DNA of 64,000 nucleotides, taken from Candidatus Aenigmatarchaeota archaeon. GTDB lineage: Archaea; Aenigmatarchaeota; Aenigmatarchaeia; Aenigmatarchaeales; JACQIB01. Positions 33,221 through 50,739 of the stretch are shown here, one piece after another. The DNA lies in NCBI GenBank assembly GCA_016198755.1, contig JACQIB010000004.1:91192-155191 (forward strand), read 5' to 3'. Under the pieces are notes generated by a model, which was not told the origin of the DNA, did no database searches, and saw nothing but the letters and a program-made list of their open reading frames with translations. The position numbers and the translations under genes are program-made. Position 1 is the first letter of the stretch. Each line of letters starts with the position of its first letter.

Positions 33221-33290
33221 GGGCTTACTTTGTTTGTAGCTGTATATAAACCTTTTCTGCCCTCGCGCAGAGTGCTTTCCTTTGGAAAGC

Positions 33291-34892
33291 TTAACGCTTA
33301 TTCTTCCTGCGTTTTATTACTATTATAAAAAACTCCCTGTAAACTACAACAGATACAAACGCAACAGCAACCCCTATAACAATTATTACAGGAAGTGCTG
33401 GAAGTTCCTCTATTGGCTGCGAAACTATATCCACTCTCTTTTCAATAGTCTCTGTCCCACTCTCATTCTGGATAGTTATCTGCAGTGAGGTTGGGAGTAT
33501 TCCATTTTCACTTGAAGCAATTTCTATTTCCACTTCCCTCTCTTCCCCAGCAGCCAGAGTGAGAGTTATTGGCTTTGTTAAAACAGTTATTCCTTGTTGT
33601 GGTTTAAGCAAAACTGTAATATTTACTGTACTATTCTGGGTGTTCTTTACAAGTATACGAACCTTACCACCTATTATTCCAGTTATCAAAACAGGCGTTT
33701 CAATTCTATTGATATCCAGCCCTCTATAAACCGCGGGTGTAATAGTAAATATTCCCAATGTTCTCACTTCTGTACCGCCGGCAGAAGCCTTGTAAGCAAA
33801 TGGATAGTTCTTTACTCCAGCTTCTTTCGGAGGCTTAAAAAGAACAGAAAAAGCCTGTTCCTGCCCGGGCTTCAGTATCATAGACACGGGCTTTACTTCA
33901 AACCAGCTTTTATTCAATCCTTCTATATCCAGATAAAGCAGAAGTGGAGAGGAAGAGTTGTAAAAGCTTGAGATAGAAACTGTAGTGAAAATAAAGTCCC
34001 CAGCCGAAACCCTTACCTCATCCTGATATTTTGTTATGTTCAGCTTTGGCTGGGTTGGTTGTAATGTTGTTGTGGTTTCTGTAACAGCAGCTCCGCCTCC
34101 TGCCCCTCCAACACCTTTTGATCCCCCAGACTCAGGTGAAGCCACTACAGTAAATGTATCAAATGCTGTTACATAATAGTCAGCTGAGTGTGCAGTGGCA
34201 GAAAGCCTGTAAGAACCTGGAGTTGGGGGAGCTGTAAACTTTACTATCCTTGTGTATGTCTGCCCGTTGCTAAGTGCAACAACATACTGCCCCAGCTCAG
34301 TTGTAAGAGAATAGTTTACTGTAGTGTCAACAGTGCCCGAGGAAAAGCTGCTTACAGTTATATTGGCTGACACTGAACCGAAAGATACTGGAGACTTGTC
34401 TATTACCTCCACAAAAACATCATATACAGGGGAGTTTGCTGTAAAGTTTGTTATATTGCTATCCCAGAGAACGCTGCGCGTTCCATTGTAAATCTGTGTT
34501 GTTATCTGATAGAGGCCAGTGGTATTCGGGATGAAGTTTACAGAACAGTTTTTTAGACTATTGGATGCAACTGTTAAAGAGCAGCTTGTATTCTGGAAAA
34601 CTCCCAGAGTGTTATTCATTGTAAGGTTTATAAAAAGCAAATCTCCAAGGTTTCCTGTATTCTGCACTGTTGCTGTAACATTAATTGAGCTGTTTGCACG
34701 AGGAGAAGGTGTTATGTTCAGGTCTGTAAACCTGCCCACTGCAAGGCTCTGTATGCTTGCATTTGATGTAACAGGCTCTGTTTGCTGGGTAACATATGCT
34801 ACAGTCGATAATAGTGGGAAGAAAACGTATATTAAAAGGAAAAGAACTGCAACAAAAGCAATCTCCCAGTCTCCAGTAGTTTTAGCATGCAT
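33291..34892 (-). CDS. Doubly anchored surface protein with CARDB/NEW3-like beta-sandwich repeats
   Basis: There is an N-terminal TM (IAFVAVLFLLIYVFFPLL) and a C-terminal TM plus basic tail (LPVIIVIGVAVAFVSVVVY...KRRKNKR). Segments such as INVTATVQNTGNLGD and KSWFEVKPVSMILKPGQEQAFSVLF are typical of CARDB/NEW3-type domains. The protein has many sequons. Confidence 0.55.
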   Translation of the reverse strand: MHAKTTGDWEIAFVAVLFLLIYVFFPLLSTVAYVTQQTEPVTSNASIQSLAVGRFTDLNITPSPRANSSINVTATVQNTGNLGDLLFINLTMNNTLGVFQNTSCSLTVASNSLKNCSVNFIPNTTGLYQITTQIYNGTRSVLWDSNITNFTANSPVYDVFVEVIDKSPVSFGSVSANITVSSFSSGTVDTTVNYSLTTELGQYVVALSNGQTYTRIVKFTAPPTPGSYRLSATAHSADYYVTAFDTFTVVASPESGGSKGVGGAGGGAAVTETTTTLQPTQPKLNITKYQDEVRVSAGDFIFTTVSISSFYNSSSPLLLYLDIEGLNKSWFEVKPVSMILKPGQEQAFSVLFKPPKEAGVKNYPFAYKASAGGTEVRTLGIFTITPAVYRGLDINRIETPVLITGIIGGKVRILVKNTQNSTVNITVLLKPQQGITVLTKPITLTLAAGEEREVEIEIASSENGILPTSLQITIQNESGTETIEKRVDIVSQPIEELPALPVIIVIGVAVAFVSVVVYREFFIIVIKRRKNKR

Positions 34893-34930
34893 AAAAGAAT
34901 TGCGCTGCGCCCGCTTAAAAGGCTTATCCC

Positions 34931-35593
34931 CTACTTTTTCTTTCCAAGCTTTTTCTTCAATTCCTGTTCCTGTTTCTTTAATTCAGCTAACTTTTCAGTA
35001 GCGGATATTTTGCCAGCTTTTTCCCTTCCCAGTTTAACAGTCCTGTATCCGGAAACAAGCTTTCTGCGTTCCAAGAAAACACCTATTGCTGTTGCAACAG
35101 CTCCTATGGCTGTTATAAAACCTGAAAACATCCCCCATTCCCCAACGAAAACGCTTAATGGAGCCTGTACAGAAGCGCCTACAGCAGAGCCTGTTGCAGC
35201 CAAATTAGTTCCTGGAGCATATGAAGCCAAGACCTTTCCTTTATACTGGGCAGGCATAAAAGGCGGGAATCTGGCTGTTGGTGCGGAAAAACAGACTTTC
35301 ACGGCCCTTCCATCGCGTGGCATTGTTTTTGCAGGTACAGCTACTGCTGCTGGCTCTGTTCTTGTAACCATTCCGGAAATATCCCCCTCCACTTTTATAG
35401 AGGCAACAACATCTGTATCAAACGGATTGTAAATATAGTATTGTGTGCAGGTTTCTTTCAGGTCTGGCACTCCAATAGCTTCCTGATCCCATCTCAGCCC
35501 AACACCAATATACTGCGCAGAAGCTAAAGTAGGCAGCAGTGATATGGGTATGGCAAAAGCAAGTAAAAGTAATAATGCCCGTTTATTTCCCAT
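34931..35593 (-). CDS. Secreted beta-rich protein with C-terminal TM anchor and Lys-rich cytoplasmic tail
   Basis: The Sec signal peptide is MGNKRALLLLLAFAIPISLLPTLASA (start at an internal Met; the longer ORF to 35653 would overlap the upstream gene). The C-terminal TM is FSGFITAIGAVATAIGVFL. The tail is KLAELKKQEQELKKKLGKKK. Confidence 0.55.
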   Translation of the reverse strand: MGNKRALLLLLAFAIPISLLPTLASAQYIGVGLRWDQEAIGVPDLKETCTQYYIYNPFDTDVVASIKVEGDISGMVTRTEPAAVAVPAKTMPRDGRAVKVCFSAPTARFPPFMPAQYKGKVLASYAPGTNLAATGSAVGASVQAPLSVFVGEWGMFSGFITAIGAVATAIGVFLERRKLVSGYRTVKLGREKAGKISATEKLAELKKQEQELKKKLGKKK

Positions 35594-35624
35594 ATTTTGA
35601 ACTTTGTTTTCCATATTTATAACC

Positions 35625-36263
35625 TCAACAGGCTGTTTCATTTTCAGTTCCAAGGAAGTTTACTGTATTGTTGTAAATACCAGCGCGCTGGCCTGAAGGT
35701 ATTGTTAACCAAAATCTAAAACTGATAACAGTACCTGCCACGCTGTCATTTCCAATACCATCTATATATTTTTTAGCAGTGTCTATTGCAATGCCTGTGC
35801 CCAAGAACGGGTCGCGCGGGGCAGTAACGCTTGGTGCATTTACTGTATAGTTTGAGGCATTAAAGAGGAAGTTTATGTTTGGTATTGTTGCTGTATCTCC
35901 TCCGGATATATTGGTCAGGTTCGCATTATCATAAATACAGATATCCACTCCCACGTTTGTAGTGGAGGAAATAGATATATTGTACATAGATAGATTTCCG
36001 CCCGCATAGTTTGTTTGATTGTAGTTTCCAGAAGCATTATTGTTGCTTGTTCCAGGGTTTACAGCGCCAAATGCAATTCCGGCAGATAAATTTGTTGTAA
36101 TTCCCAGTGCAACGAACTTGTTTATGCTTACATTAGCTGTTGTGCTCTGTGTATCTGTGGTAGCAAAGCCTGTTAGCTTGCCTCCGAATGAAAACAAAGA
36201 GAGGGAAATTGCCATTAGCAAAAACACTGTTACCGTCAATATTTTAGCCCTGTTGTCTCCCAT
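35625..36263 (-). CDS. Small secreted protein homologous to the C-terminal domain of the giant protein (candidate filament subunit)
   Basis: The signal peptide or anchor is KILTVTVFLLMAISLSLFSF, followed by GGKLTGFATTDTQ. The mature part aligns by eye with the last ~170 aa of the 2708-aa protein: LGITTNLSAGIAFGAVNPGTS vs LGLSTNLSAPIGYDVINPGTT, and FRFWLTIPSGQRAGIYNNTVNF vs FKFRLAIPTGQTPGLYNNSIIF. Confidence 0.6.
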   Translation of the reverse strand: MGDNRAKILTVTVFLLMAISLSLFSFGGKLTGFATTDTQSTTANVSINKFVALGITTNLSAGIAFGAVNPGTSNNNASGNYNQTNYAGGNLSMYNISISSTTNVGVDICIYDNANLTNISGGDTATIPNINFLFNASNYTVNAPSVTAPRDPFLGTGIAIDTAKKYIDGIGNDSVAGTVISFRFWLTIPSGQRAGIYNNTVNFLGTENETAC

Positions 36264-36336
36264 ACTATCACATTATTTTTTAACTATTTAAGCCTTGATT
36301 TTGTCTTATTTTTACTATATGTTTTTATATTCCCTC

Positions 36337-39300
36337 CTAACTGCTTTTGTTAGCAGTGAATATTATTGAGTTGTTATACAGACCTGGAGTCTGCCCCGTT
36401 GGGATTGCAAGGCGGAACTTAAAGTATACAGTTGTTGTGCCAGCTGCAATCTGGCTTTTAACAAGCTGGTCTGTCAAACTCATTGTCTGGAACGGGGAAA
36501 TTGTTTCCAGCGTGTTGTCTGTGCTGGAGTTTAAAAAAGTCATATTGCTAATTCCTATAATGGATGTACCTCCTGTCTTGTTTGTTAAATGATCGTTTGC
36601 CCTCAGCCAGATATCTGCACTGCAGCCTGCATTTGTTAACTGGACAGAAAAAGTTGTAACTCCTGTTCCATTATTGCCTGTTGCGTTTATAGTAGTCCCA
36701 GGATTTATTACATCGTATCCTATTGGAGCGCTCAGATTTGTTGAGAGTCCGAGGGAAATTGAGCAGGCAGCACCTGAAACATTTGCATAAACAGTTCTTG
36801 CACCTGCAGAATAGTTCTCATCTCCTGTAAAATAGCCCGTTACATTATAGTTGCCAGCTGTAGAAAATGGTCCTGTAAGGTTTATTAGAGGAGGGGCTCC
36901 TGAAGTTGCATTTATCCAGCCAGTAAAGTTCGAGTCTATTTTAACTGTCTGCACTGAAAAGTTCAAAGCCTGTGTTGTTGAATTAAGCAAAACAGTTATG
37001 TTCAGTGTATCTGTATCATTATAGTCCCTGTTCCCGTCTGTTCCGTTCAAAAGAACTGTTAGGTTTGTTGCTCCCTTGTTTACAAGGTAATTCAAGCTTG
37101 AGCTCCCAACAGTAAAGTTTGTTGTGGCAGTTGAGTTGCAGATATACTGCCATGTGCTAACATTCAGCCTGAATGTTGTGCTGTTTTCAGGAGTTGTAAC
37201 ATCAAATGAAAGGCTTGAAATGTTTCTATAAAGTTTTACTGTAACACCTGCATCAGTGTTTGAACTGGAGCAGTTAGACTGGCTTGTTGTAGGATAAGTT
37301 ATGGGACTAGAGGGGGATATTGTAAGTGTTATTGTAGGAGTTAAAGTGTTTACTGTAAGAGTGTATGATGCTCCAGTATCATTTGCTGAATAGTTTGCAT
37401 TTGAGCTCATATTAACTTTATAGGAATATGTCCCTGCCCCCAGCTTTATTGTTTCAGTGCTGCTCTTGGAAACTCCATCTCTGAATAAATTGGCTGTGCC
37501 TGCAGTTGAGAAGTTTTTACTTGCCGTGGCTATAATGTTTGCCCCATAGAACATAGCTTTGTTTGAGTTGAAACTAACAGTTCCATTATCCAAAGTCAGG
37601 TCCACAAAATTGCTTGTATTTACAGCCACAGAATATGGTATAACTCTGGTTGTGTTTACCTTAGATGTTGTGTCTGTACCAATCCAGCGATACTGGTAAG
37701 AGCCCCCAGCCAGATCAGAGAAGTTTATAACATACAGGCCATTTATCTGATCACCAGTGCTGCGTGCAACAGTATAGTTTGTTAGGCTGGAATTCAGGTT
37801 CGCTTCAAATAAAACAGTGTCTATACCCCCGTCATCGCTCCAGTTTGCCTGGAATCCATAATTCTTGCCCGGAGCATAGACTGTTGCAGATGGGACAGAA
37901 GTAAAGTTGTTTGTGTAGTTTGGATTATTGTTCGGGGCAACTGCTGTATATGTATAGGTAAACCATGCTGTAGGTGCAATATCAAACATCTGCTGAGTTA
38001 TGACCATTATACTAAAGTTGTATTGTGTTGTTGCATTTGCAAGACCATAAAAATCAATTCCTGATCCAGCAGGAGCTGAATTTCCAGATAAGTTGGAAGC
38101 ATTAAACAAATGCTGTTCAGGGCTGAGCAAATCAGAGTCCTGCACAACAATCTGCCCCTGCTGGACTTGAGAATGGTTAATCCATGGCCTTATCTGTCCC
38201 ACTCCAGCTGTTGAGCCTTTTACAGGAATATCTATCCAGCTGTTCCTTACTGCTGGGTTGTCTGGAGTGTAAATATATAGAGCTTGTGTAGAGGCGTTCT
38301 GGGCAGCGTTTGTGGTATTACTGAAATTTGTAAAATATCCTATGGTTTTCAGTTGCGTGGAAGAATCATTTGGATATGTATAAATCAAGTCGGCAGTAAA
38401 CCAAGTGTTTGACTGAGCTTGCGTGCGTGCCCAGAGAGTTACATTATGTCTATTATCACCGGTTGTTGTAGAGTAAAACTCTCCAGATCCATCTGAACCG
38501 TTCACAATAATCCACTTCGGAGAGATAAAATCTGTATCAGCAACGCCTATATTATTTCCGTACTGGAGATTTGAACCATTCACAGTTATATTCATTATCC
38601 CACCAGCTGTTCCATTCCCCTGCGTATAAATTGTAAGATAAGCGCTCCTCACTGCAACACTACTTTCAGGAATATACATGTCAAACAGGGAAGACCAGTT
38701 TGTGTTTGCAGCTATAGAGAAAGTCCTGTTACCAAAGAAGCGTACATGTTTCAGTTGTGTTGTGGAACTGGAATCATAACTGTAAGTTACTGTAGCTTTA
38801 ATCCAAGCATCGTCCAGTCTGTTTGTATAAGTTCTAAAAGTAACATTATAATAGTTGTTACCTGTGCCCGCATTATAAAACCCATTTACATAATTTTGTG
38901 TGTTGTTTGAGGCATTAAATGCCCAGTGTATTGGAGCACGGGTAGAGGTTTGCACAGATCTGTTCAGCGAATAATAAAGAGCAGTTTGGTTTATGTAGAC
39001 ATCAGCCTTCCCTTGTGCTGTCCCACCAACATTTGTTTCTCCATAAACTTCTACAAAGGCGTTCCTTACTGTTATCTGGTTTTCTGGAATGTAAAGATTG
39101 AAATCCATTGTAGTGAAGTTAGAGTTTGCAGTTATGTTTGCAGTGCGGTTTACAAAATAAGTTATTGTTTTCAAATGTGTTTCTGATATTATATCATATT
39201 CATAAGTTATGTAGGCTTTTGCCCAAGTGTTGAAAAATTGCTTTGCATCAGATTTTATTTCCAGTCCGAATTTGTTATCTCCTTGAGTTATACCATAAAG

Positions 39301-42300
39301 ACCGCTATAAGGGGTTGTTGTGTTAGAGGCATTGAACCTGTAGATTGAAGGGAAAACCTGATCTGCATCCATTATACCTACTTTGCTTGCATAATCCAAC
39401 GGAGTTCCGTTTAATAGCACTCGTAGGTTGGCGCCTCCTCCCGCATCCCCTTCTGTATAAACTTCTATCCACGCACTTTTAACAGAAACTCCTCTCTCTG
39501 GTATATATACAGAAAAGTTGCTTGTGAACACACCACTGGCATCAGTCATGTTGCTGCTGTTAATAAACCATTCTATTGTTTTTATTGAGTGATTGCCTAC
39601 GAGAGGATTTATTATATATGGTATTACTCCAGTATCATTTATCTGCTGCATTGTGTCGTTTGCAATCCATCTATATTGATAAGTTCCGTTTGTCAAGCCA
39701 GTAAAGTTTATTGTATATATTGCCTGTGTTAAATTCCCGCCTGCAAGCTTTGTGAGTGTAAAGTTCTTCAGGCTTGAATTCAGGTTTGTCTCAAATGTTA
39801 CATTAACAATTTCAGCAACCTCAGTTGAGATATTGGTTGAAAAGCCATAGTTTCCAGTGCTGTGTATTGTATCTAAATCTGGAATGCTGGTTGCATTGTT
39901 TATGAAAACTGGAGTTCTGTTTCCTACAGAATATGGTATAACACCTGTAGTATTCACATAATTATCCGTATCATTGGCAATCCATCTGTACTGGTAAGAA
40001 CCTGTAGATATATTTGTAAAGTTTATAAGATACAGGCCATTGAAGCTGTCGCCTGCAGTCCTGCCAACAGTAAAGTTTTTCAGGCTGCTGTTGAAATTAG
40101 ACTCGAAAAATACAATCTGCACCCCAAAGTTGTCTGTCCAGTTTGTCTGGAAGCCCCAGTTTTTGTTCAGCTGATATACTGTACCGCTTGGCTGAGATGT
40201 AACATTGTTCTGGAATTGTGGAGGAGGGGCTGGAGAGTATGTATATGTAAACCAACCAACAGGAGCTATATTGAACATTTGCTGAGTTATGACCATTATA
40301 CTAAAGTTGTATTGTGTTGTAGCGTTTCCGAGTGCATAAAAGTCATTTCCTGTTGTTGCAGAAGCATTGAAAAGCCCCTGAAACGGGCTTAGTACAGTGT
40401 CTGTATCAGGTATAACAGTCTGTCCCTGATTTATCTGGGAGTGGTTAATCCAAATCCTTACCTGACCTGCCCCTGCTGTGCTCCCATGAACATAAGTATC
40501 TACCCAGCTGTTTCTTACTGTTGGATTATCTGGAGTGTAAATGTATAGAGCTTGTGTAGAGGCGTTCTGGGCAGCGTTTGTTGTGTTGCTCTGGTTTATG
40601 AAGTAACCTATTGTTTTCAGCTGGCTGGTAGAGTCATTTGCATAGGTATAAACAAGTCCTGCCCTGAACCAGCTATCTTTCTGCGCCTGCGTCCTCACCC
40701 ACACGCTTACATTATGTCTGTTGCTACCTGTTGTTGTACTGTAAAGCTCTCCAAATCCATCTGAAGCGTTCACAGAAACCCATATCGGGGCAATAATATC
40801 TGTATCAGTAACAGCAATATTGCTTGAATACTGCAGGTTAGACTGGTTTATGCTTATGTTCATTGTACCTCCAGCAGTGCCGTTTCCATGAGTATAAAAG
40901 TCAAGATAGGCATTCCTGATCGTAACAGAGGTTTCCGGAATAAAAATATCAAAGAGAGAGGACCAGTTTGTGTTTGCAGCAATAGCAAAAGTGCTCCTGT
41001 TACCAAAGAACTTTACACTATTTAACTGTGTGGTTGAATTTGCAGCATAAGAATATGTTGCAGTAACCTTTATCCAAACATTGTCCATGCGGTTTGTATA
41101 GGATCTGACTGTTATGTTATATAGGTTATTACCTGTGCCTGCAGTATAAAGTCCGTTTGCATAGCTTAAAGTTGAATTAGAGGCGTTAAACATAAGGAAT
41201 GTTGGGGCGCGCGGCGTTGTCTGCAGGCTCCTATTCAATCCATAATCCACTCCTGTACCGTTTATGTACACATCAGTCTTTCCTTTTGTTGTTCCTGAAA
41301 CAGCTGGCTCTGTATAAACCTCTATAAAAGAATTTCTGACCTTTACCTGATCCTCGGGGATATAGAGATTAAAATTATAGTTTGTGAAATTAGAGTTTGC
41401 GCTAACATTGGCAGTCCTGTTTACAAAATAAGTTACTGTTTTCAGTTGCGTTTCAGAGTTTGTATCATACTCATAAGTTACATAAGCTTTTATCCAGCCG
41501 TTGAAGGAGTTCTTTGCAAACCCATCCACTTCAATCCCAAAATTATTTTCCCCCTGAGCTATACTGTAGAGGCCGTTAAAGTTTGCGCTTGCATTCGAGG
41601 CATTGAATCTCCATATATTTGGAAAAAACAAATCAGCATCACCAATCACAGCTTTGCTTGCATACTGCAGAGGAGTTCCGTTAAGAAAAATCACAAAATA
41701 GTCTCCTGCAGACTCTGAACCCTCTCTATAAACCTCTATCCACGCACTTTTAACAGAAACTCCTCTCTCTGGTATATAGATGCTGAAATTCGAAATAGCA
41801 TCACCTGTAATGGTTGTCATGTTTGAGCTATTTACAAACCACTCTATTGTCTTTATTGAGGCAGCTCCAGGTATGGGATTCATTGAATAAGGTATAACTC
41901 CTGTTGTGTTTACACCGCTTGCACTGTCGTTTACTATCCATCTGTATTGGTAGGTTCCGTTTGTCAGGCCAGTAAGACTAGTGAAGTTTATTGTATAGGT
42001 TGCAAAGGTTGTGTTTCCGCCTGCAACAGCAGATATAGTAAAGTTTTTCAGGGTTGCATTCAGGTTTGTTTCGAAAGTTACGTTGATAATTTCTGTTCCA
42101 AATGTAGTTATGTTTGTTGAAAATCCATAGTTTGCTGTAGCATTTATTGGGAAGTTAGAAGGCATGGAGCTTGCGTTGTTAACAAAAATTAGTTGAGAGT
42201 TTGCTATAGAAAATGGTATAATGCCGGTTGTGTTTATATTGTTTGCAGAATCATTTGCTATCCAGCGATATTGGTAGTTTCCGGCAGAGAGCGTTGAACC

Positions 42301-44463
42301 AGTGAAGTTTATGAAATAAAATTTCTGAGTTGCATTTCCACCAGCAACAGCAGGTATAGTAAAGTTTTTCAGGGTCGCATTCAGGTTTGTTTCGAAAGTT
42401 ACATTGTTTATGGAAACGGATTCTGTGGATACGTTTGTTGAGAATGTGTAGTTTGTAAGTGTGTTTATGCCCACTCCGCTTGCTTGTGAACTCGTGTTGC
42501 TTACAAAGCGGGGCTTTGGAACATCAGAATAAGCTCCTGTGGCTACAAGCTTTACTGATTTGAGCGGACATGCAACATTAGACTGGCATTTTATGTTTAC
42601 TGAAAATGTTTTTGGAGTGTCTGTTGACAGGTTGTATACTCCATTGGTGTTTGTTGTTGCATTGTGCCTTATCATGTAGTTGAAAATCTCAACGCCTGCA
42701 ACAAAAGTATAGTTTGTGTAGCTTGTGTTTTCATCGTATGGTGTACTGTTCATTGAAACAGTTATTGCTGTTGTAAGAGCTGACACATCCAAAAGTCCCT
42801 CTACCTGCAGGAAAGCTGATTTCACAACAAAATCATCGTCTATAGGCTTTATTGTAAATGTAGAGTTCCACCAGCTCCCAGCAGAAACAGTTGCTGTGGA
42901 AGAGTTCACATAATATTCTTCAGTATCCATATAGTTAGCGGCATCTGAAGTATATGTTATAATAACAGAGGCTGACATTGCTTCGCATGTATCGCCTGCT
43001 CCGCATTTCACACCGAAAGCAAATCCATATGTGCTATTGTCTGTTATTCCATACAGTCCCTGCACGCTTCCTGTTACGCTGGATGCGTTTGCAAGTACAA
43101 CAAATCCATAGCTTGGGGTTGTACCTGCTATAACTGGGGATAAAATGTTCGTTCCATTAAGCCTGAGGTCAAGTGTGTTGTCAGTGGTTGCAGCGCTCCC
43201 AGGATAAACACCTGTAAGTTTTATGTACGATGATTTTACAGCAATGTTTGTGCCTGAAAGGGCAACAGTAAAGGTCGAATTCCACCATGTGCTTGTTCCA
43301 ACACTTACATTTGTGGAGTTGATAAAAACCTCAACTGTTTTTGTTTTCGCAGGTGCTGTATACTGATATGTTACTTTCATTACAGTTCCAAGTGCTCCTG
43401 TAGGCGCTCCGGCTTTGAGTCCATAGAGAAAGGTAGATGGGGTAGAGTTGAGCATATATGTCAGGTTGTTGCTTGCATTCCTTACAATCCTTATTGTGGA
43501 AGCTTCCCCATTTCCAGCACTTACAGGCGCAGGCCCAAGATTTGTAGAATTCTGTGATACGTTAAGTACCCTATCTACTGTTCCAGTTTCGTCATTTGAT
43601 CCCCAGGTTTCAAACCATGCATTTTTCACAACAGCAGCATTATCAGAGAGTGCAGCTGAAAATGTGGAATTCCACCATACACCGGCTCCTGTCTGCGGTC
43701 CGCTTGCATTCACGAAAAAATCAACTGTACGTACTTCTGTTGCTGCAAATGCTGGTATAGATGTTAATGGGATAAACAACATTATAAAAATAATTGCCAG
43801 AAATGTTGGCTTCTTTTTTCGCAATACAATTCCAAGTGGAATAAAAGCAAGAAGAGGGAGTAAACTGAAAAGCCAGTTTAGGATTGATTTTGGTTCAGTA
43901 TGAGTTTGGGATAGCGGGAACTGGGGCGCAGCATTTTCAGATACAACTTTTGTATTATCTTCCTCAGGACCGGTTCCTGGAGGATCGTATGTATAGGTTA
44001 TTATAGCGCGTGCAGAGACCGAATTGCAAAGGTCGCCGTTGCACTGCACCCCGAATTTCAGCCTTCTTGAACTGCTGTTTGTTATATTGTAAAGGTTATC
44101 GTAGTTACCCGATGAATTATCCAGAATAGTAAAATATTCAGTTTCTCCGGAATTTGTGAAAGAGTATGTATCAGCAGCTCCTCCGTTCTGCGCTATTTTT
44201 ATATTGCTTGCCGCTGTCCCAGCCTTCCCAAAAGAGCCCGAAACTTCTATAAAGGCTGAAATAACCTGAGGAGTTGGATCAGGGAGCTGCACATCATATG
44301 TGCTGTTAAACCAGTTTCCATTTGGCATTTGCGAATCAGACTGGTTTATGAAAAATACAACTGTTTTTGTGTTGAAAAGATAGCCTGCTTCTGCTACTGG
44401 AACAGAGAGTAAGAAAATCAGGGCAAATAAGAGCGGCAGAGCCAGCAAAGAGAGAGCTTTCAT
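36337..44463 (-). CDS. Giant (2708 aa) secreted modular surface protein, extremely rich in N-X-S/T sequons
   Basis: It is a single uninterrupted ORF with the Sec signal peptide MKALSLLALPLLFALIFLLSVPVAEA. It contains 12 copies of a ~130-190 aa module (starts KT[VI]x[FWY]F[VI]N, ends [VI]TYxY). It also contains 5 copies of a ~105 aa module (NVTFETNLNxxLKNFT ... GxYQYRWIAND), about 3 Ig-like modules with GDxNY, and a C-terminal ~170-aa domain shared with the downstream gene. Confidence 0.85.
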   Translation of the reverse strand: MKALSLLALPLLFALIFLLSVPVAEAGYLFNTKTVVFFINQSDSQMPNGNWFNSTYDVQLPDPTPQVISAFIEVSGSFGKAGTAASNIKIAQNGGAADTYSFTNSGETEYFTILDNSSGNYDNLYNITNSSSRRLKFGVQCNGDLCNSVSARAIITYTYDPPGTGPEEDNTKVVSENAAPQFPLSQTHTEPKSILNWLFSLLPLLAFIPLGIVLRKKKPTFLAIIFIMLFIPLTSIPAFAATEVRTVDFFVNASGPQTGAGVWWNSTFSAALSDNAAVVKNAWFETWGSNDETGTVDRVLNVSQNSTNLGPAPVSAGNGEASTIRIVRNASNNLTYMLNSTPSTFLYGLKAGAPTGALGTVMKVTYQYTAPAKTKTVEVFINSTNVSVGTSTWWNSTFTVALSGTNIAVKSSYIKLTGVYPGSAATTDNTLDLRLNGTNILSPVIAGTTPSYGFVVLANASSVTGSVQGLYGITDNSTYGFAFGVKCGAGDTCEAMSASVIITYTSDAANYMDTEEYYVNSSTATVSAGSWWNSTFTIKPIDDDFVVKSAFLQVEGLLDVSALTTAITVSMNSTPYDENTSYTNYTFVAGVEIFNYMIRHNATTNTNGVYNLSTDTPKTFSVNIKCQSNVACPLKSVKLVATGAYSDVPKPRFVSNTSSQASGVGINTLTNYTFSTNVSTESVSINNVTFETNLNATLKNFTIPAVAGGNATQKFYFINFTGSTLSAGNYQYRWIANDSANNINTTGIIPFSIANSQLIFVNNASSMPSNFPINATANYGFSTNITTFGTEIINVTFETNLNATLKNFTISAVAGGNTTFATYTINFTSLTGLTNGTYQYRWIVNDSASGVNTTGVIPYSMNPIPGAASIKTIEWFVNSSNMTTITGDAISNFSIYIPERGVSVKSAWIEVYREGSESAGDYFVIFLNGTPLQYASKAVIGDADLFFPNIWRFNASNASANFNGLYSIAQGENNFGIEVDGFAKNSFNGWIKAYVTYEYDTNSETQLKTVTYFVNRTANVSANSNFTNYNFNLYIPEDQVKVRNSFIEVYTEPAVSGTTKGKTDVYINGTGVDYGLNRSLQTTPRAPTFLMFNASNSTLSYANGLYTAGTGNNLYNITVRSYTNRMDNVWIKVTATYSYAANSTTQLNSVKFFGNRSTFAIAANTNWSSLFDIFIPETSVTIRNAYLDFYTHGNGTAGGTMNISINQSNLQYSSNIAVTDTDIIAPIWVSVNASDGFGELYSTTTGSNRHNVSVWVRTQAQKDSWFRAGLVYTYANDSTSQLKTIGYFINQSNTTNAAQNASTQALYIYTPDNPTVRNSWVDTYVHGSTAGAGQVRIWINHSQINQGQTVIPDTDTVLSPFQGLFNASATTGNDFYALGNATTQYNFSIMVITQQMFNIAPVGWFTYTYSPAPPPQFQNNVTSQPSGTVYQLNKNWGFQTNWTDNFGVQIVFFESNFNSSLKNFTVGRTAGDSFNGLYLINFTNISTGSYQYRWIANDTDNYVNTTGVIPYSVGNRTPVFINNATSIPDLDTIHSTGNYGFSTNISTEVAEIVNVTFETNLNSSLKNFTLTKLAGGNLTQAIYTINFTGLTNGTYQYRWIANDTMQQINDTGVIPYIINPLVGNHSIKTIEWFINSSNMTDASGVFTSNFSVYIPERGVSVKSAWIEVYTEGDAGGGANLRVLLNGTPLDYASKVGIMDADQVFPSIYRFNASNTTTPYSGLYGITQGDNKFGLEIKSDAKQFFNTWAKAYITYEYDIISETHLKTITYFVNRTANITANSNFTTMDFNLYIPENQITVRNAFVEVYGETNVGGTAQGKADVYINQTALYYSLNRSVQTSTRAPIHWAFNASNNTQNYVNGFYNAGTGNNYYNVTFRTYTNRLDDAWIKATVTYSYDSSSTTQLKHVRFFGNRTFSIAANTNWSSLFDMYIPESSVAVRSAYLTIYTQGNGTAGGIMNITVNGSNLQYGNNIGVADTDFISPKWIIVNGSDGSGEFYSTTTGDNRHNVTLWARTQAQSNTWFTADLIYTYPNDSSTQLKTIGYFTNFSNTTNAAQNASTQALYIYTPDNPAVRNSWIDIPVKGSTAGVGQIRPWINHSQVQQGQIVVQDSDLLSPEQHLFNASNLSGNSAPAGSGIDFYGLANATTQYNFSIMVITQQMFDIAPTAWFTYTYTAVAPNNNPNYTNNFTSVPSATVYAPGKNYGFQANWSDDGGIDTVLFEANLNSSLTNYTVARSTGDQINGLYVINFSDLAGGSYQYRWIGTDTTSKVNTTRVIPYSVAVNTSNFVDLTLDNGTVSFNSNKAMFYGANIIATASKNFSTAGTANLFRDGVSKSSTETIKLGAGTYSYKVNMSSNANYSANDTGASYTLTVNTLTPTITLTISPSSPITYPTTSQSNCSSSNTDAGVTVKLYRNISSLSFDVTTPENSTTFRLNVSTWQYICNSTATTNFTVGSSSLNYLVNKGATNLTVLLNGTDGNRDYNDTDTLNITVLLNSTTQALNFSVQTVKIDSNFTGWINATSGAPPLINLTGPFSTAGNYNVTGYFTGDENYSAGARTVYANVSGAACSISLGLSTNLSAPIGYDVINPGTTINATGNNGTGVTTFSVQLTNAGCSADIWLRANDHLTNKTGGTSIIGISNMTFLNSSTDNTLETISPFQTMSLTDQLVKSQIAAGTTTVYFKFRLAIPTGQTPGLYNNSIIFTANKSS
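37918..42516 (-). repeat. Tandem in-frame duplication of a ~2.28-kb (about 763-770 aa) six-module super-repeat inside the giant gene
   Basis: Copy 1 is about 40228-42516 (aa ~650-1412) and copy 2 about 37918-40227 (aa ~1413-2182). Long identical DNA runs occur at offsets of 2268-2289 nt. For example, tgctgagttatgaccattatactaaagttgtattgtgttgt occurs at 37991 and 40280, and cacgcacttttaacagaaactcctctctctggtatata at 39470 and 41741. Confidence 0.85.
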
Positions 44464-44519
44464 GGGTTTAATTTAGTGCGTAAGCATATATTTAATGGTT
44501 ATTTGTGCCTTTTGGAGGT

Positions 44520-45698
44520 TTAGCTCTGGAAAATCACATTATCTATCAGGAAGCTTGAACCCGGGAACTGGTTGCAGCTGTCTGTGGCTGTATAAAACCG
44601 CATTAACTTACCCTTGTCTATAATAGTATTGGAATTTGCTGTTATATTATACCATCCACCTCCGACATCAATTGTGGATGTTTTATACTCCCCCGGAGTT
44701 GAAATAATATTCCCAGCCGAATCTATCTCAAACGGAAGGCTTGTATCAGAATCCCCATTTGCAAATAAAACCTCCACACCGAAAGCCCAGTTGCAGGTTG
44801 CCCCATTTGTAAAGTTAGGTAGGTAATTAAAGCTTACATTGAATAATCCTGTTCCTGTGGCTTCCAGCTTATCAGAAAAAACCCTTTGGGGTGCCCCAAG
44901 GTATTTTATACGCAGTGCTGTTGCAGACTGGTAACCAGATTCCAGAGGATTATATTCCCAGTTTATCTCATCTGCAGCACCGTTTATATCCTGCATGAGC
45001 GTCCAGTTCTCGGGCAGGCTTGAATTGCCTGCACGCACGGTTTCCAAATCATAGTTAGATATTCTTGACGCATCTTTCTGTGCACTAACATCACCCCCAT
45101 CAGCTGAGAGGCTTGGTATAGTCCAGCGTACTCCGTCTTTTTTTCCAACATTGTTCTTATCTAACAGAGCTTTCCTAATATTCTTCTTATTGCTGTCCAA
45201 TACAACAGAATAATGATATTCCGGTGGTAGCCCAGGAAGATCTGTATTGATTGGTATGTTTTTATAATGATAATCAGATTTTACAGTTACATGTTTTTTA
45301 TAGTTGGTTTGCTCGCTGTTCAATATACTTTCAGTAACGTATATTGGCGATGTTTGGAAGCGAAAAACCCATGAAGAATCCCCTGGCGGGGCATCAAAAG
45401 AAACAGTTTCCTTCCCATGTATTTTTGCATTAGCAGGTGCTGATATTACTTCAGCTCCCTTTCCAAAGTTTAATTTAGTTGTTTTTGCAAATAGTCCTGG
45501 ATTTTTTGCAATAACTGTCCTATCCCATACTATTGGTTTTTCATAGACAAACCCAGAAACCAGCGAATATGTGCTTGTTGTAGAAACCTCACCTGTTTTT
45601 GCTGGCGCAAGACCGGTGTTAACAGAAACATTATAAAGCCCAAGGGCTAGAAAAAGTACTGTTATGACTGCAAAAGCCAAAAGAGGTATCTTTCCCAT
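44520..45698 (-). CDS. Secreted protein with C-terminal jelly-roll/CBM-like domain (paralog A)
   Basis: The N-terminal signal anchor is IPLLAFAVITVLFLALGL. The protein is colinear with the adjacent 394-aa paralog. The shared C-terminus is CNWAFGVEV.FA.G.SDTSLPFEIDSAGNI.STPGEY ... SCNQFPGSS.L.DNV.F. Confidence 0.6.
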   Translation of the reverse strand: MGKIPLLAFAVITVLFLALGLYNVSVNTGLAPAKTGEVSTTSTYSLVSGFVYEKPIVWDRTVIAKNPGLFAKTTKLNFGKGAEVISAPANAKIHGKETVSFDAPPGDSSWVFRFQTSPIYVTESILNSEQTNYKKHVTVKSDYHYKNIPINTDLPGLPPEYHYSVVLDSNKKNIRKALLDKNNVGKKDGVRWTIPSLSADGGDVSAQKDASRISNYDLETVRAGNSSLPENWTLMQDINGAADEINWEYNPLESGYQSATALRIKYLGAPQRVFSDKLEATGTGLFNVSFNYLPNFTNGATCNWAFGVEVLFANGDSDTSLPFEIDSAGNIISTPGEYKTSTIDVGGGWYNITANSNTIIDKGKLMRFYTATDSCNQFPGSSFLIDNVIFQS

Positions 45699-45744
45699 AA
45701 TTAAAATATATGATGGTTGTTAATATAGCTTTCTGTTTTAAAAT

Positions 45745-46929
45745 TTAGGCTTCAAACACAACGTTATCCATTAAGACGCTTGATCCAGGGAACTGATTGC
45801 AGCTCTCAGTGTCTATATAAAATTGCATAGACTTATCAGGATCTATCAGTACATTTGACTTTGCATCCACATGGTACCAGCCATCAGTCAGCGGGGTTAC
45901 AACTGTATTATACTCCCCTGGGGTTGAAACAATATTCCCGGCTGAATCTATCTCAAACGGAAGGCTTGTATCAGATTCTCCTGTTGCAAAGAAAACTTCC
46001 ACACCGAAAGCCCAGTTGCAGATTGCTCCGCTCTCAAACTGGGGATTAAAATCAAAGCTTATATTGAAAGTTCCGGTGCCCAGTGTAGATAGATTATCAG
46101 AATATATCCTGTATGTGCCCAAGTGCTTTACTCTTAGTGAGCTGGAAGACTGCCAGCCAGCTTCCAAGGGATCATATCCCCAGTCAATTGCATCAGTTCT
46201 GGCAGTCGGATCCTGTGTCAAAGTCCATCCATCAGGTTTCTTATCATTGTTAGCTCTGCCTGTCTCAAACTTGTAATTCGAAATCCTTGAAGGCACTTTC
46301 TGTGCTGCAACACCAAAGCTTTCAGTTGATAAATGGGCAACTGTCCAGCGAGTAGAATCTTTGTTCCCATCCCCATCATTATCATACAAAACCTTCCTTG
46401 TCTCCTGCCCTGTGCTCTGCGGAGTAATAGAATAAACATGGGTTGCAGGGAGATTTGGTAAAGAAGTTAAAGCAGGTATATTTGTATAATGGTAATTTGA
46501 GGAAACAGTAACAATTTTATTGTAGTTTGCTGGATCAGAGTTTAGAACCTGTTCAGTAACAGTTATGGGAGCTGTTTCAAACCTTATAATCCATACAGAA
46601 TCTCCCGAAGGAGCCTTTATTACAAACTTTTTCTTTCCTTCCATTTTTACCCCATCAGGAACACTAACAACCTCAGCTCCCTTGCCAAGCTTTATTTTAA
46701 CCTTCTTATTCTTTTCTGTTGGATTGTGTACATATACTGTCCTGTCCCATGTAATTGGCTGGTTCAAAACAAAACCTGAAACAAGGCTGTCTGTTTGCGT
46801 GAAAGTAACCTTATTATCCTCAACCTCTGCTGCTTCTATATCATCATCAGCCAGAACAGCTGTAGAATAAGAAGCAAAAAATAGTGCAAATACAGAAACT
46901 AAAAGAAGTACACCAATAGCATGCTTCAT
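45745..46929 (-). CDS. Secreted protein with C-terminal jelly-roll/CBM-like domain (paralog B)
   Basis: The signal peptide is MKHAIGVLLLVSVFALFFASYSTAVLA. The C-terminal part is about 85-90 percent identical at DNA level to paralog A over about 100 nt (45921-46025 vs 44701-44800). Confidence 0.6.
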   Translation of the reverse strand: MKHAIGVLLLVSVFALFFASYSTAVLADDDIEAAEVEDNKVTFTQTDSLVSGFVLNQPITWDRTVYVHNPTEKNKKVKIKLGKGAEVVSVPDGVKMEGKKKFVIKAPSGDSVWIIRFETAPITVTEQVLNSDPANYNKIVTVSSNYHYTNIPALTSLPNLPATHVYSITPQSTGQETRKVLYDNDGDGNKDSTRWTVAHLSTESFGVAAQKVPSRISNYKFETGRANNDKKPDGWTLTQDPTARTDAIDWGYDPLEAGWQSSSSLRVKHLGTYRIYSDNLSTLGTGTFNISFDFNPQFESGAICNWAFGVEVFFATGESDTSLPFEIDSAGNIVSTPGEYNTVVTPLTDGWYHVDAKSNVLIDPDKSMQFYIDTESCNQFPGSSVLMDNVVFEA

Positions 46930-46994
46930 AGGATACTATTCTATAGAAATATAATAAATACACACACCCCATGACAAATAATAAAAATTTTTGA

Positions 46995-48542
46995 CTATTT
47001 TGTTATGAAACCGCTTACAACAAAATTTTCAAATCCTGAGAGGCATCCTTGGCTGTTTGAGGAAATAAACGGCACATAAAGCCTTCCATCAGGGATCGAT
47101 TCTCTGGTTTTAATTTGTATGTGCTGCCAGCCAAAGTCTGTATTTTCTATGGTTCCTGAGAAATCAGGCAAACCTGCCGGAAGCAAATCCAATGTTGTAT
47201 TTGCATTTATACCTGCAGTATAGGTTGTATCAGACTCTCCGTTTGGATAGAAAACTTCTATTCCCGCTCTTCCAATCTGGCATTGAGATTCATAGTCTGT
47301 TTTGAAATAGAAATCCAATCCAACCTGCTTATTTCCCCCCGCTTGCACCTTTCTGTACATAGTAAGCGGATTACCTGTTTTAAGAATAATCCCGCGCGAA
47401 TCCACAAAACCTTCTGTTATAGCAGTATAATTCAAATCTTCACTTTCTTCTATTCTGTCGGCATTCGCTCTTGCAAACCAGCCTTCATTTTCTAATATTT
47501 CCTTTTCTGTTTTTTTCTTTTGTTTTTGTTTTACATCCAAACTTACTGAAGCTTTTACCTTTCCCTGCACAAGGCTTGTTATAGTATAGTATTCCAGAAC
47601 CTGTTGGAATCCTTCGCTTGGCCTGAAAATAAGCCTTAATTTTCCTGTATTATTTTGTATATTGTAAATTCCCTCTCCATCAGTTCCCTCAAAAACTAGC
47701 TCTTCTTTTCCATTGAAATCCACCCAAATTGAACCTAGGCTGCCTACAATAACCTGACCTGTTGCTCCCTGCAATGTTGTATTTTCTTCTGTTGTAGTTG
47801 TTGGAACCGTGGTTGTGGTAGAAATTGTTGTACTTGTGATTGTAGTAGATGTTGTGGAAGTTGTAGTCTGGTTTTCTTGTTGTATGGTTGTTTCTGTCTG
47901 ATTGGTAAGTACCAGTGTGGTTGTTGTATTTTCTGATGTGGTGTTTTCTAAGGAAGGTATTATAGTGATGCTTGTTGTACTGGTTGTTTGGTTTGCCTGT
48001 TCCAACGTGGTTGTGGTTTCCACAATGTTTATTATCTTCTTTCCCAATGAACTGATTTTGAAAGAAAGCAACACAGGATTTTTAATCCCCTCCAAATCAA
48101 TTATAAAATCCCCCTCAGAAAATGACTTTCCAACAGGGAATTTATCTTCTTTTTCCAGCATACCATCTCCCATAGCATCCACAGAAATAACTCCCACAGC
48201 GTCTGATGTGAAGTTTAGCTCTCTTTTCTCCCCGCCTCCTATATTATTAACAAACCAGGAAATTTTCTTCCCTTCAACATACCCATCAACGGGATTTATT
48301 ATATTTGAATTTTCCGGCAGGGAAACTAAAACCGTAATATTTTCAATATTTTCCCTCCCTATATTAGAGAGTGTTACCAAGAACCCATTTTCCCCAATCT
48401 CATTTATCCCTACTGAAAGGGTCCCTTTTCCAAACAGAGAAAATCCCCCTATGCCCTCAGGTGAAAATAGCATCAAAAACCCGAATATACCAAAAATAAG
48501 GGCTAGAGACAATGTAATTTTGAACGCAAATGATTTTTCCAT
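46995..48542 (-). CDS. Secreted protein: DUF11/CARDB-like N-domain, Thr-rich linker, C-terminal jelly-roll/CBM-like domain (paralog C)
   Basis: The signal anchor is ITLSLALIFGIFGFLMLF. LVTLSNIGRENIENITVLVSLP ... ISWFVNNIGGGEKRELNFT resembles DUF11/CARDB. The linker is TTTSTTSTTITSTTISTTTTVPTTTT. The C-terminus CQIGRAGIEVFYPNGESDTTY ... GWQHIQ ... parallels paralogs A and B. Confidence 0.55.
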   Translation of the reverse strand: MEKSFAFKITLSLALIFGIFGFLMLFSPEGIGGFSLFGKGTLSVGINEIGENGFLVTLSNIGRENIENITVLVSLPENSNIINPVDGYVEGKKISWFVNNIGGGEKRELNFTSDAVGVISVDAMGDGMLEKEDKFPVGKSFSEGDFIIDLEGIKNPVLLSFKISSLGKKIINIVETTTTLEQANQTTSTTSITIIPSLENTTSENTTTTLVLTNQTETTIQQENQTTTSTTSTTITSTTISTTTTVPTTTTEENTTLQGATGQVIVGSLGSIWVDFNGKEELVFEGTDGEGIYNIQNNTGKLRLIFRPSEGFQQVLEYYTITSLVQGKVKASVSLDVKQKQKKKTEKEILENEGWFARANADRIEESEDLNYTAITEGFVDSRGIILKTGNPLTMYRKVQAGGNKQVGLDFYFKTDYESQCQIGRAGIEVFYPNGESDTTYTAGINANTTLDLLPAGLPDFSGTIENTDFGWQHIQIKTRESIPDGRLYVPFISSNSQGCLSGFENFVVSGFITK

Positions 48543-48596: not shown

Positions 48597-49223
48597 ATGG
48601 ACTGGAAGATATGGGCTGTTGTTTTGGTGGCTCTTGGGATAGTTGCTTCTGCTTTTATAGTTTCTTCAGGCAGTCCAAGTGGCTATATTGCATTCCCATC
48701 TTTGCCTGAGGAAAAGAAAGCAGCCTTTTCAGCAGATCTTACAGTGCGTTCATTCTCTTTGGATGCTCCGGCAGAGTTATTGACCATTGATTTCAAAGAT
48801 TCCAACTCAAGCCTTTTTGTTGGTGCAGATAAAATAGATATTCTTTCAGATACTTCTACAGGAACCCTTGTTCTGGAAAAGTTCAAAGGAAAAATAGCTT
48901 ATAATGGCCTGCTGACTTTAGTGGGAACAGCAGAAGCTGTTTCTGTTAACGGAGTAAGGTTTAAAGCCCGTTCAGTACGTTTGGAAAGCAATTCAATAGA
49001 GTTCAGAAAAGTTTCAATAGATGGGGTTTCTATCCCCTCCCTATCTGTAACAGGCTCAGGAACAGTGAATGTGAATTCAGGCAAATACTCTGCAAAAATG
49101 GAAGGGGAAACACTAGAATCCGGTCCTTTCTCCGGTAGAATCGATCTCTCGCAGAGTGACAGTTTTTATCTCTCCGGTTCTGCAGCACGTTTACATATTG
49201 GAGAGCGCGTACGCTTTGCCTAA
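48597..49223 (+). CDS. N-terminally anchored hypothetical protein
   Basis: The TM is IWAVVLVALGIVASAFIV, followed by a beta-rich region. It is transcribed divergently from the surface-protein locus across a 54-bp gap holding two TATA-like elements. Confidence 0.45.
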   Translation: MDWKIWAVVLVALGIVASAFIVSSGSPSGYIAFPSLPEEKKAAFSADLTVRSFSLDAPAELLTIDFKDSNSSLFVGADKIDILSDTSTGTLVLEKFKGKIAYNGLLTLVGTAEAVSVNGVRFKARSVRLESNSIEFRKVSIDGVSIPSLSVTGSGTVNVNSGKYSAKMEGETLESGPFSGRIDLSQSDSFYLSGSAARLHIGERVRFA

Positions 49224-49979: not shown

Positions 49980-50372
49980 CTACATTATAATTTTGTTCAT
50001 TTCTTCTATTTTTTCGAAATCCCTGTCTGATGTAACTAGCATCATGCCATTTTCTATGGCTTGTGCTGCAATAAAAAGATCAGAAAAATGTTGGCCACCA
50101 TATTTTTGTTTTAATATAGATAATATATGAGCTGTATTTTTTGTAGTTTGTACAACTTCAAAATTTTCTATAAAAGCTAAAGATTTTTCTTTGTTGTGGA
50201 TGTGTTTTTCCCTTAAGCCGTAAATAAATTCAAAATACGAAATAAAAGAAATTTTTGGTGGTTCAGGATAGTCCACCTTCAGATTTGATACCTTTTCTAT
50301 GATACTCTTCTGTCTTCTATCCAGATCTATTACTATGGAAGTATCGAAAATAAGCATCATACCTAAAACCAT
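49980..50372 (-). CDS. vapC: PIN-domain ribonuclease toxin VapC
   Basis: The N-terminal acidic motif is MLIFDTSIVIDL and the C-terminal motif is LFIAAQAIENGMMLVTSDRDFEKI. It overlaps the upstream small gene by 10 nt. Confidence 0.8.
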   Translation of the reverse strand: MVLGMMLIFDTSIVIDLDRRQKSIIEKVSNLKVDYPEPPKISFISYFEFIYGLREKHIHNKEKSLAFIENFEVVQTTKNTAHILSILKQKYGGQHFSDLFIAAQAIENGMMLVTSDRDFEKIEEMNKIIM

Positions 50373-50627: not shown

Positions 50628-50739
50628 AAATATTACCTTAATGCATGAGTTTTGCGCTCTGGAATAACAAACCAGAATACGAAATTTGCGCGGCGGTGTT
50701 AAGAAAAAGCTTTATAAACATTGTTTTCTTAGCTTTCCC

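Follow-up and report, generated by a model that had tools for sequence, protein, structure and literature searches.

In chaperone-usher pili, the chaperone completes the fold of the subunit. Systems of this kind (Fim, Pap, CFA/I, Caf1, Csu/CupE) are built from Sec-exported subunits of immunoglobulin (Ig)-like fold and need no ATPase, and the last subunit stays bound at the base of the pilus (PMC12122975). The WxL clusters of Lactobacillales and Bacillales encode one small and one large protein of WxL type as well as WxLIP, which joins DUF916 and DUF3324 domains to a transmembrane (TM) segment (PMC10599100; PMC1534035), and AlphaFold2 (AF2) predicts that a strand of this TM-anchored Ig protein completes the WxL sandwich in two such proteins, one of each size (PMC10599100). 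Strand-donation filaments of archaea include the threads, Abp, cannulae, the DUF1102 clusters and tafi, the last comprising TafC/E/A/F with TafD, a SipW-type peptidase, and TafG, a DUF5305 protein (PMC11821415); these filaments are regarded as chaperone-free (PMC12337348). Here we describe a locus within a 64,000-nucleotide (nt) stretch, hereafter the window, from a Candidatus Aenigmatarchaeota archaeon (assembly GCA_016198755.1, contig JACQIB010000004.1, positions 91,192 to 155,191), in which seven minus-strand genes at 33291-48542, named g7 to g1 in the order of transcription, encode predicted Sec-exported proteins around a giant modular one. Four of these genes make up a cassette, conserved among tiny archaea of the DPANN type, whose closest analogue is the Firmicute WxL cluster in gene architecture and the chaperone-usher toolkit in fold, and which probably holds an attachment protein or a short fibre on the cell surface. 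The likeliest reading, to which we give about an even chance (roughly 0.5), is that the cassette specifies an adhesin complex or short stalk tethered to the membrane, in which Ig-like domains interact by beta-strand complementation.

The conserved unit is g4-g3-g2-g1, and not all seven genes. In the cassette, a large protein that ends in a g3-type domain is followed by one to three small g3-like proteins, a g2-like protein of roughly 200 residues that combines a signal peptide, one beta-sandwich, a C-terminal TM helix and a Lys-rich tail, and, in fourth position, a TM-anchored Ig protein of 330-715 residues with an N-terminal hydrophobic segment, Ig-like domains, a C-proximal TM helix and a basic tail. 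This order recurs in 16 loci outside the lineage of the window, despite identities of 20-45%. A scan of GTDB species genomes with the peptide FRFWLDVP yielded 11 of them (L015-L025), all in archaeal metagenome-assembled genomes (MAGs) labelled Candidatus Aenigmatarchaeota (1), Candidatus Woesearchaeota (3), 'uncultured archaeon' (6) or Halobacteria (1); the others (L013, L014, L026, L028 and L030) were reached through individual proteins. The g3-like and g2-like genes sit in one same-strand cluster in all 16 loci, a g2 homologue directly follows a g3-like gene in 15, and all four positions are seen in about half, the rest being cut by contig ends or rearranged (L015, L022, L024 and L026 among them). 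At 677-3108 of L025, g3-like and g2-like genes stand as pairs in tandem (g3, g2, g3, g2) before a g1-like gene, as though each member of one family had its own cognate partner in the other. In close relatives the entire order is kept on fragments, found in an ENA assembly labelled ANAN16-1 (SAMN03842437) and in other metagenomes: L001 and L006 carry the g4 C-terminus, g3, g2, g1 and DUF1512, and L012 carries a g7-like gene followed by two g5/g6-type genes. The initial annotation had treated all seven genes as one system; the order g4-g3-g2-g1 is indeed kept in distant relatives, but the arrangement of g5-g7 is matched in L012, a close relative, alone, apart from one protein with a similar C-terminal domain in L023. 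Such conservation bears on one alternative, namely that these are independent secreted or membrane proteins, S-layer-associated or nutrient-binding, grouped by regulation alone. Their lack of family annotation, the frequency of Ig-like and NEW3 surface proteins in archaea, and TATA-like boxes in nearly every intergenic gap, which would permit separate transcription, are all compatible with that explanation, but it sits poorly with a gene order kept across divergent genomes, with one domain common to small and large proteins, and with tandem duplication of g3-g2 pairs, and we regard it as very unlikely.

The domain that ties the small and the large protein together is best seen in g3 (35625..36263, minus strand), a 212-residue protein that combines a Sec-type signal peptide with a short tail rich in Thr and a single beta-sandwich domain. 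The whole mature g3 is homologous to the C-terminal domain of g4 (residues ~2533-2707; 36343..36867, minus strand), in agreement with the terminal domain that the initial annotation had seen in both proteins: g4 residues 2533-2707 are 31% identical to g3 residues 24-208 (BLAST E 1e-17), and an independent hidden Markov model (HMM), built from 102 family members without g4, matches g4 residues 2567-2706 at E 9e-25, a match that the HMMER bias filter hides by default. Large proteins of 11 other loci, and further library proteins of up to 3075 residues, likewise carry a g3-type domain at the C-terminus. Word-indexed searches with g3, g6 and g2 gave only three to five close matches each, and it was an exhaustive profile search that revealed the extent of the g3 family, with 509 representatives at E ≤ 1e-3 and 311 at E ≤ 1e-10, counted among 50%-identity cluster representatives. 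Most members are 185-225 residues long, a minority reach ~290, and several are large proteins (404-3075 residues) that end in the domain. Neither Pfam nor NCBIfam has a model for the small-subunit domain. A conserved Cys pair in g3, consisting of the Cys in a VDIC motif and a C-terminal Cys, is near-invariant in the small subunits and absent from the C-terminal domains of most large proteins, and the g4 domain, which lacks it, is of this 'tip-type' variety.

The protein that bears this tip-type domain, g4 (36337..44463, minus strand), has a signal peptide and 2708 residues, and we presume it to be a giant surface adhesin. It contains 12 copies of a module A of ~130 residues, five copies of an Ig-like module B of ~105 residues, Ig-like linkers and the C-terminal pilin-fold domain, and a super-repeat is duplicated within it (residues ~650-1410 against ~1410-2170, 60-74% identity). 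No significant Pfam family was matched in g4, and the module-A profile gave no meaningful match to sequences of the PDB. Elsewhere, the N-terminal parts of the large proteins vary, with Laminin_G_3 in 3 of 10, DUF2341 in 2 of 10 and Big_13 in 1 of 10, and their C-terminal domain is constant, a build that typifies adhesins whose attachment module is fixed.

The AF2 model of g3 (102 sequences) has a predicted local distance difference test score (pLDDT) of 87.4 and a predicted template modelling score (pTM) of 0.73, and chaperone-usher pilins prevail among the PDB structures that Foldseek retrieves for it, namely CfaB, CS17, FimA, CupE, Caf1, CsuA/B, PapA, SafA and HdaB, with probabilities of up to 0.99. 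A kinship with donor-strand systems, which the initial annotation had proposed, is thus suggested by structure prediction, albeit at weak E-values, and the precedents it had named are not: threads, TasA and AbpA were absent from the 50 Foldseek matches listed for g3, in which CanA took rank 40 (E 0.2), and the g3 profile returned none of Saci_0406, AbpA and CanA from all PDB sequences at E up to 10. More generally, the g3 and g2 profiles found nothing meaningful among PDB sequences.

A second fold of the same toolkit is predicted next door. The product of g2 (34931..35614, minus strand) is 227 residues long and consists of a signal peptide, a beta-sandwich at residues ~36-157, a TM helix and a Lys-rich cytoplasmic tail of ~45 residues, and its AF2 model (16 sequences, pLDDT 77.5) shows one beta-sandwich and, behind it, a long helix formed by the TM segment together with the tail. 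Foldseek finds the FaeE chaperone as the best match (E 3.4e-7) among 93 at E<1e-3, then YadV, PapD and Caf1M, and after these MSP/VAP, HYDIN and CEP192 domains, such that the predicted fold of g2 is clearly that of PapD/MSP; no PapD Pfam match was obtained in g2 or its homologues. The residues G39, W42, C56, Y59, Y62, N63, P64, C108, F109, G126, G142, S143, P152 and L153 are invariant. A single segment of the model has pLDDT <50, and it holds the pair G142-S143, immediately ahead of the conserved last strand (APL.L.V); being invariant yet predicted to be disordered, the pair is a candidate donor element in a segment that may become ordered on binding.

The fourth protein, g1 (33291..34892, minus strand), has 533 residues; behind a signal or anchor at the N-terminus come several Ig-like domains, and the protein closes with a TM segment and a basic tail. 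A PapD-like/ASH-type domain at residues ~313-358 matches Pfam Cep192_D3 with 34.8 bits against a cut-off of 27, and there are weaker Pfam matches to HYDIN, FixG_C, CARDB and MSP. Fourth-position proteins of other loci give weak to moderate matches of the same sort (Cep192_D3, HYDIN, ASH, NEW3/NPCBM_assoc), three of which exceed the gathering threshold (Cep192_D3 in two proteins and NPCBM_assoc in one). The initial annotation was therefore right to regard g2 and g1 as beta-sandwich proteins fixed in the membrane by TM helices, as the g2 model and the Ig-like Pfam matches of g1 indicate, but their role as anchors understates them, given the PapD/MSP fold in g2 and the PapD-like/ASH domain in g1. 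With pilins as the nearest structures to g3 and a PapD fold in g2, a gene of predicted pilin-like fold consistently adjoins a PapD-fold gene, and next comes a gene for a protein with a PapD-clan domain.

Glycosylation sites are distributed unequally over these proteins. N-x-S/T sequons exceed the number expected from composition 2.4-3.2-fold in g4 (165 observed vs 64 expected), g3 (13 vs 5.4) and g1 (20 vs 6.3), whereas g2 has 0 against 0.5 expected, and the family means follow suit, at 10.0 vs 3.95 expected for g3-like and 0.64 vs 0.81 expected for g2-like proteins. The exposed parts are accordingly predicted to be heavily N-glycosylated and the interaction domain of g2 to be bare, a bias which would fit a division between exposed parts and an interaction module near the membrane (g2).

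Gene content, common domains, conservation of the cassette, predicted folds and glycosylation-site bias are directly supported, and on them we base the following model of the tethered adhesin complex. All four proteins, g4, g3, g2 and g1, would be exported by Sec. The C-terminal helix would hold g2 in the cytoplasmic membrane and expose its single unglycosylated PapD/MSP-fold domain on the outside, where this domain would bind the pilin-fold domain of mature g3 and that of the g4 C-terminus, probably completing it by insertion of a beta-strand. The g3 protein, with one to three paralogs per locus, may then link g2 at the membrane to the g4 C-terminal domain, either as an adaptor or as a short stalk. 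Joined to g3 and g2 at this end, g4 would project its N-terminal modules outward, and these are modules A and B here and LamG lectin, DUF2341 or Big domains in other lineages. As a second TM-anchored protein, carrying PapD-like/ASH and other Ig domains, g1 could be a co-anchor, a spacer or an assembly platform, and g5-g7 would be lineage-specific secreted accessories. We infer the physical contacts in this scheme, the strand complementation, the stoichiometry and the role in adhesion or host attachment.

Several observations weigh against this model. The pilin matches of g3 are weak (E 7e-3 to 0.3, none <1e-3, target-normalised TM-score 0.4-0.55), and N-terminal beta-sandwiches of GH123 proteins are interleaved with them at nearly equal scores. 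The PapD/MSP fold is widespread beyond chaperones (VAP, HYDIN, CEP192), g2 has a single domain against two in PapD, and none of its invariant residues is Arg or Lys. Comparison of g1 with the fourth-position proteins elsewhere is only marginal at the profile-profile level (probability 36%, E 4e-4). The internal hydrophobic hairpin of g4 (residues ~197-240; 43744..43875, minus strand) may anchor the giant in the membrane by itself. A subgroup of the g3 family of ~290 residues (P0033, P0036 and others; by length, ~19 of the 150 family matches listed) carries a coiled-coil-like cytoplasmic extension of ~100 residues before the hydrophobic segment, and this suggests a stable N-terminal (type II) membrane anchor in those members. 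Finally, 7 of 9 large proteins inspected have an equivalent of the strand that comes first in the small subunits ('SNVTI'), which leaves a hydrophilic tail of 5-10 residues, rich in Thr, Ser and Glu, as the only subunit-specific N-terminal part.

This last point is also pertinent to a more ambitious interpretation, in which the cassette encodes a true pilus. Here, donor-strand exchange would join g3 subunits head-to-tail in a long fibre that bears g4 as a two-domain, FimH-like tip adhesin; g2, a chaperone tethered to the membrane, would cap g3 up to its incorporation and retain the last subunit, and g1 would be a platform in place of the usher. Much in the cassette recalls chaperone-usher systems: the pilin-like matches of g3, the chaperone matches of the protein encoded next to it, and large proteins, g4 included, that combine a C-terminal pilin-type domain with N-terminal parts of a receptor-binding type, the C-terminal position being that of the pilin-fold domain in FimH and PapG. 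Moreover, the mature g3 N-terminus starts almost directly with a conserved beta-strand motif, and strand-donation fibres are known from archaea in the threads, Abp, cannulae and tafi. Against this, the small subunits show no recognisable donor extension, that is, no subunit-specific N-terminal stretch with alternating hydrophobic residues, and the small paralogs, between one and three per locus, are distinct and keep a set order, so that they look more like adaptors than one major subunit; in addition, the fold evidence for g3 is weak. The cassette departs from chaperone-usher systems in further respects, as no usher family occurs in the locus or its flanks, the archaeal host has no outer membrane, g2 is a one-domain protein with a C-terminal TM anchor and without the invariant Arg/Lys pair, heavy N-glycosylation is predicted, and no sequence-level relationship connects the cassette with the Pfam pilin, chaperone and usher families. 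We therefore hold a true pilus to be doubtful, and consider its fuller form, an usher-less, chaperone-assisted donor-strand pilus of DPANN archaea in which g2 primes and anchors g3 and the giant, lineage-variable, glycosylated g4 sits at the tip for host attachment, rather unlikely. Filament polymerisation as proposed in the initial annotation is likewise doubtful, and the small subunits have no obvious N-terminal donor extension of their own.

The tethered complex also has to be set against the WxL clusters, with which it has a gene architecture in common: a small protein that consists of the domain only, a large protein in which the domain lies behind variable host-binding domains at the C-terminus, and an Ig-like protein that bears a signal peptide and, at its C-terminus, a TM helix. 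On this precedent, the g3-type domain might be an envelope-binding module that attaches to the S-layer or glycans of the cell itself, without strand exchange, leaving g2 and g1 as independent membrane adhesins or spacers. A sugar-related sandwich is hinted at by the GH123 N-terminal matches and by a profile match to 8k2h (E 0.17), and the predicted heavy glycosylation of the proteins would agree with such a role. However, no member of WxL (PF13731) was detected by Pfam in 102 g3-family proteins, and WxLIP (PF06030, PF11797) is represented only by sub-threshold WxLIP_PGBD matches in 1 of 16 g2 homologues (E 0.021) and one g1-like protein (E 0.088). The adjacency of g2 to a g3-like gene in 15 of 16 other loci, together with the duplication of g3-g2 pairs in tandem, argues for a specific protein-protein pair, and the published WxL model itself involves strand insertion. 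In contrast to the Firmicute clusters, the cassette belongs to an archaeal host without peptidoglycan, its g2 has one Ig domain where WxLIP has two, and it contains an extra TM-anchored Ig protein, g1. Binding to the envelope without strand exchange thus appears distinctly unlikely.

The strand-donation filaments of archaea resemble the cassette in host, in the lack of an ATPase and in subunits of Ig-like or jelly-roll type. The tafi come nearest, with a LamG tip protein, small pilin-like subunits of FimA/CfaB fold and a TM-anchored base protein, LamG being found in large proteins of the cassette also; however, the pilin-fold domain is C-terminal in the cassette adhesin and N-terminal in TafC. 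Neither DUF1102 nor TasA (Peptidase_M73) was matched by Pfam in g1-g7, the 102 g3 homologues or the scanned neighbours, and a Pfam search of the cassettes gave no SipW-type peptidase or DUF5305 protein in any of them. The cassette differs from these filaments also in the PapD-fold gene that is a consistent neighbour in it. As to type IV pili and archaella, which the initial annotation had already set aside, the locus and its immediate flanks contain no ATPase, platform protein or prepilin peptidase, the domain build is wrong, and the g3-family N-termini, whose helix had raised the possibility of class III signal peptides, have no conserved [KR][GA] cleavage motif of that class; many have A-x-A-type sites after the hydrophobic segment, and about half have a conserved [IV]TG motif in place of such a site.

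The gene calls and layout were re-examined across the locus. All seven minus-strand open reading frames (ORFs) of the initial annotation are present at the positions given there, encoding 515, 394, 392, 2708, 212, 240 (227) and 533 residues from g7 to g1, and every product has an N-terminal hydrophobic segment, seen in the sequence and as AF2 helices in the modelled proteins, in keeping with the Sec-type signals or anchors claimed for them. Pfam and NCBIfam matched no family in g2-g7 and no enzyme, ATPase, platform or prepilin-peptidase family in g1-g7, so the observation that no enzyme is recognisable stands. Of the intergenic gaps, given as 31-73 nt, five do span 38-73 nt (g7-g6 65, g6-g5 46, g5-g4 56, g4-g3 73 and g2-g1 38), but that between g3 and g2 measures 10 nt if g2 starts at MENK (35614), and 31 nt with the start chosen earlier, MGNK at the next ATG. 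The MENK start is also used in L001, a relative with 81% identity, and is most likely the true one; the longest g2 ORF, which runs from a TTG to 35653, overlaps g3 and is probably too long. Only g3 and g2 look translationally coupled. A TATA-like A/T-rich box lies ~25-35 nt upstream of the next start codon in each gap of at least 38 nt (the boxes are in 46930-46994, 45699-45744, 44464-44519, 36264-36336, 34893-34930 and 33221-33290), and a run of T opens the g7-g6 gap; the 'operon' g7-g1 may hence comprise several transcription units, although chance matches are likely because the spacers are AT-rich. A scan for sigma-70 promoters and terminators gave background levels and is unsuited to archaea.

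Some members of the cassette families have features of their own. The hairpin of g4 runs from a module-A domain through a TM-like segment and RKKK into a stretch that looks like a perfect signal peptide (…AFA followed by ATE). Codon 214 is an in-frame TTG (nt 43824), at which a start would give the signal peptide M/L-RKKKPTFLAIIFIMLFIPLTSIPAFA before ATE, and the hairpin may be either a membrane hairpin or anchor, or the trace left where a small module-A protein with a TM anchor became fused in frame to the giant. In P0062 (698 residues, from the representative library), an N-terminal g3-like domain and a TM-like segment precede g1-type Ig-like domains, and the protein ends in a TM segment with a tail rich in Lys; either cassette components are naturally fused in it, or gene calling has merged them. 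The rearranged cassette of L026 contains a g3 variant of ~290 residues (4894-5784) and a ribbon-helix-helix (RHH) gene between the large and g2-like genes, with a tyrosine integrase ~6 kb downstream. In L024, whose GC-rich MAG bears the label 'uncultured Halobacteria archaeon', the cassette is rearranged: it opens with three small g3-like genes, continues with g2 and a g1-like gene that passes the NPCBM_assoc threshold, and closes with a large protein of 1285 residues; the family may extend beyond low-GC lineages, or the label may be wrong. The WxL-operon family EF0750_LPXTG weakly matched 4 of 20 g3 homologues and was rejected as a homology lead, because the matches, of which three were inspected, extend only over the signal peptide and the first part of the mature chain.

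Upstream of the cassette, g5 (44520-45698), g6 (45745-46929) and g7 (46995-48542), all on the minus strand, encode secreted paralogs with a common C-terminal domain of ~150 residues, as had been reported. The g5 and g6 proteins are 52% identical, and g7 resembles them in the C-terminal ~150 residues only (BLAST E 1e-6), a match that jackhmmer also recovers with E-values that are not comparable. The motifs N-[YF]-x-[FL]-E…W at the start of the domain and DNV-x-F at its end are compatible with a jelly roll of the carbohydrate-binding module (CBM) type, and hhalign detected no relationship with module A, g3 or g2. From their distribution, g5-g7 appear to be lineage-specific secreted accessories outside the conserved unit. 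A divergently transcribed gene directly upstream of g7 (48597-49223, plus strand) encodes 208 residues, hydrophobic at the N-terminus and beta-rich in the main part; it keeps this position in the close relative L012 and not in other cassettes, and may be an eighth secreted component specific to this lineage.

Elsewhere in the window, other surface-type proteins are encoded on the plus strand, namely a large CARDB/mucin-like protein of 699 residues (23961-26060) and a run of three ORFs (52408-58954) of 553, 624 and 971 residues, the last with pentapeptide repeats and a weak, sub-threshold Big_3_5 match; g3, g2 and module-A domains were sought in these proteins and none was found. The locus is flanked by a PIN-domain protein (49980-50372, minus strand), a TraB-family/M50-type protease pair (50686-51958, plus strand) and a rhomboid protease (29829-30602, minus strand), and neither DUF1512, the rhomboid nor the other flanking genes are linked to the cassette in other genomes. 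The window also encodes ribosomal protein L10e, a diphthamide-synthesis protein, DUF1512 and, at 14826-17402 on the minus strand, a SufB/SufD-family Fe-S assembly protein split by an intein that carries a homing-endonuclease domain of the LAGLIDADG type (matches to Hint, Intein_splicing and LAGLIDADG_3 inside SUFBD); no tRNA or Rfam matches were found in it.

As proposed in the initial annotation, the locus represents an undescribed archaeal surface or adhesion system, and full-text literature searches found no description of a DPANN cassette of the pilin/PapD type. The cassette is widespread and wholly unannotated, and two families drawn from it would fill annotation gaps in many DPANN genomes. 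Its division of labour is clear, the giant adhesin being variable, the domain for attachment constant and the partners anchored in the membrane, and the predicted folds give a concrete model of assembly. It also links three systems that have been treated separately, the chaperone-usher pili, the Firmicute WxL clusters and the archaeal fimbriae, and the presence of a PapD-fold gene that consistently adjoins pilin-fold genes questions the view that archaeal strand-donation fibres need no chaperone. Should the cassette specify a chaperone-assisted pilus, it would be the first chaperone-dependent strand-donation fibre in Archaea, and the pilin-plus-PapD toolkit would be either far older than the Gram-negative outer membrane or reinvented. 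Cultivated DPANN archaea need contact with host cells, and the molecules of that contact are, by co-culture and cryo-tomography accounts, largely unknown; if such a pilus is real, the cassette would be the organelle by which DPANN ectosymbionts attach to their hosts.

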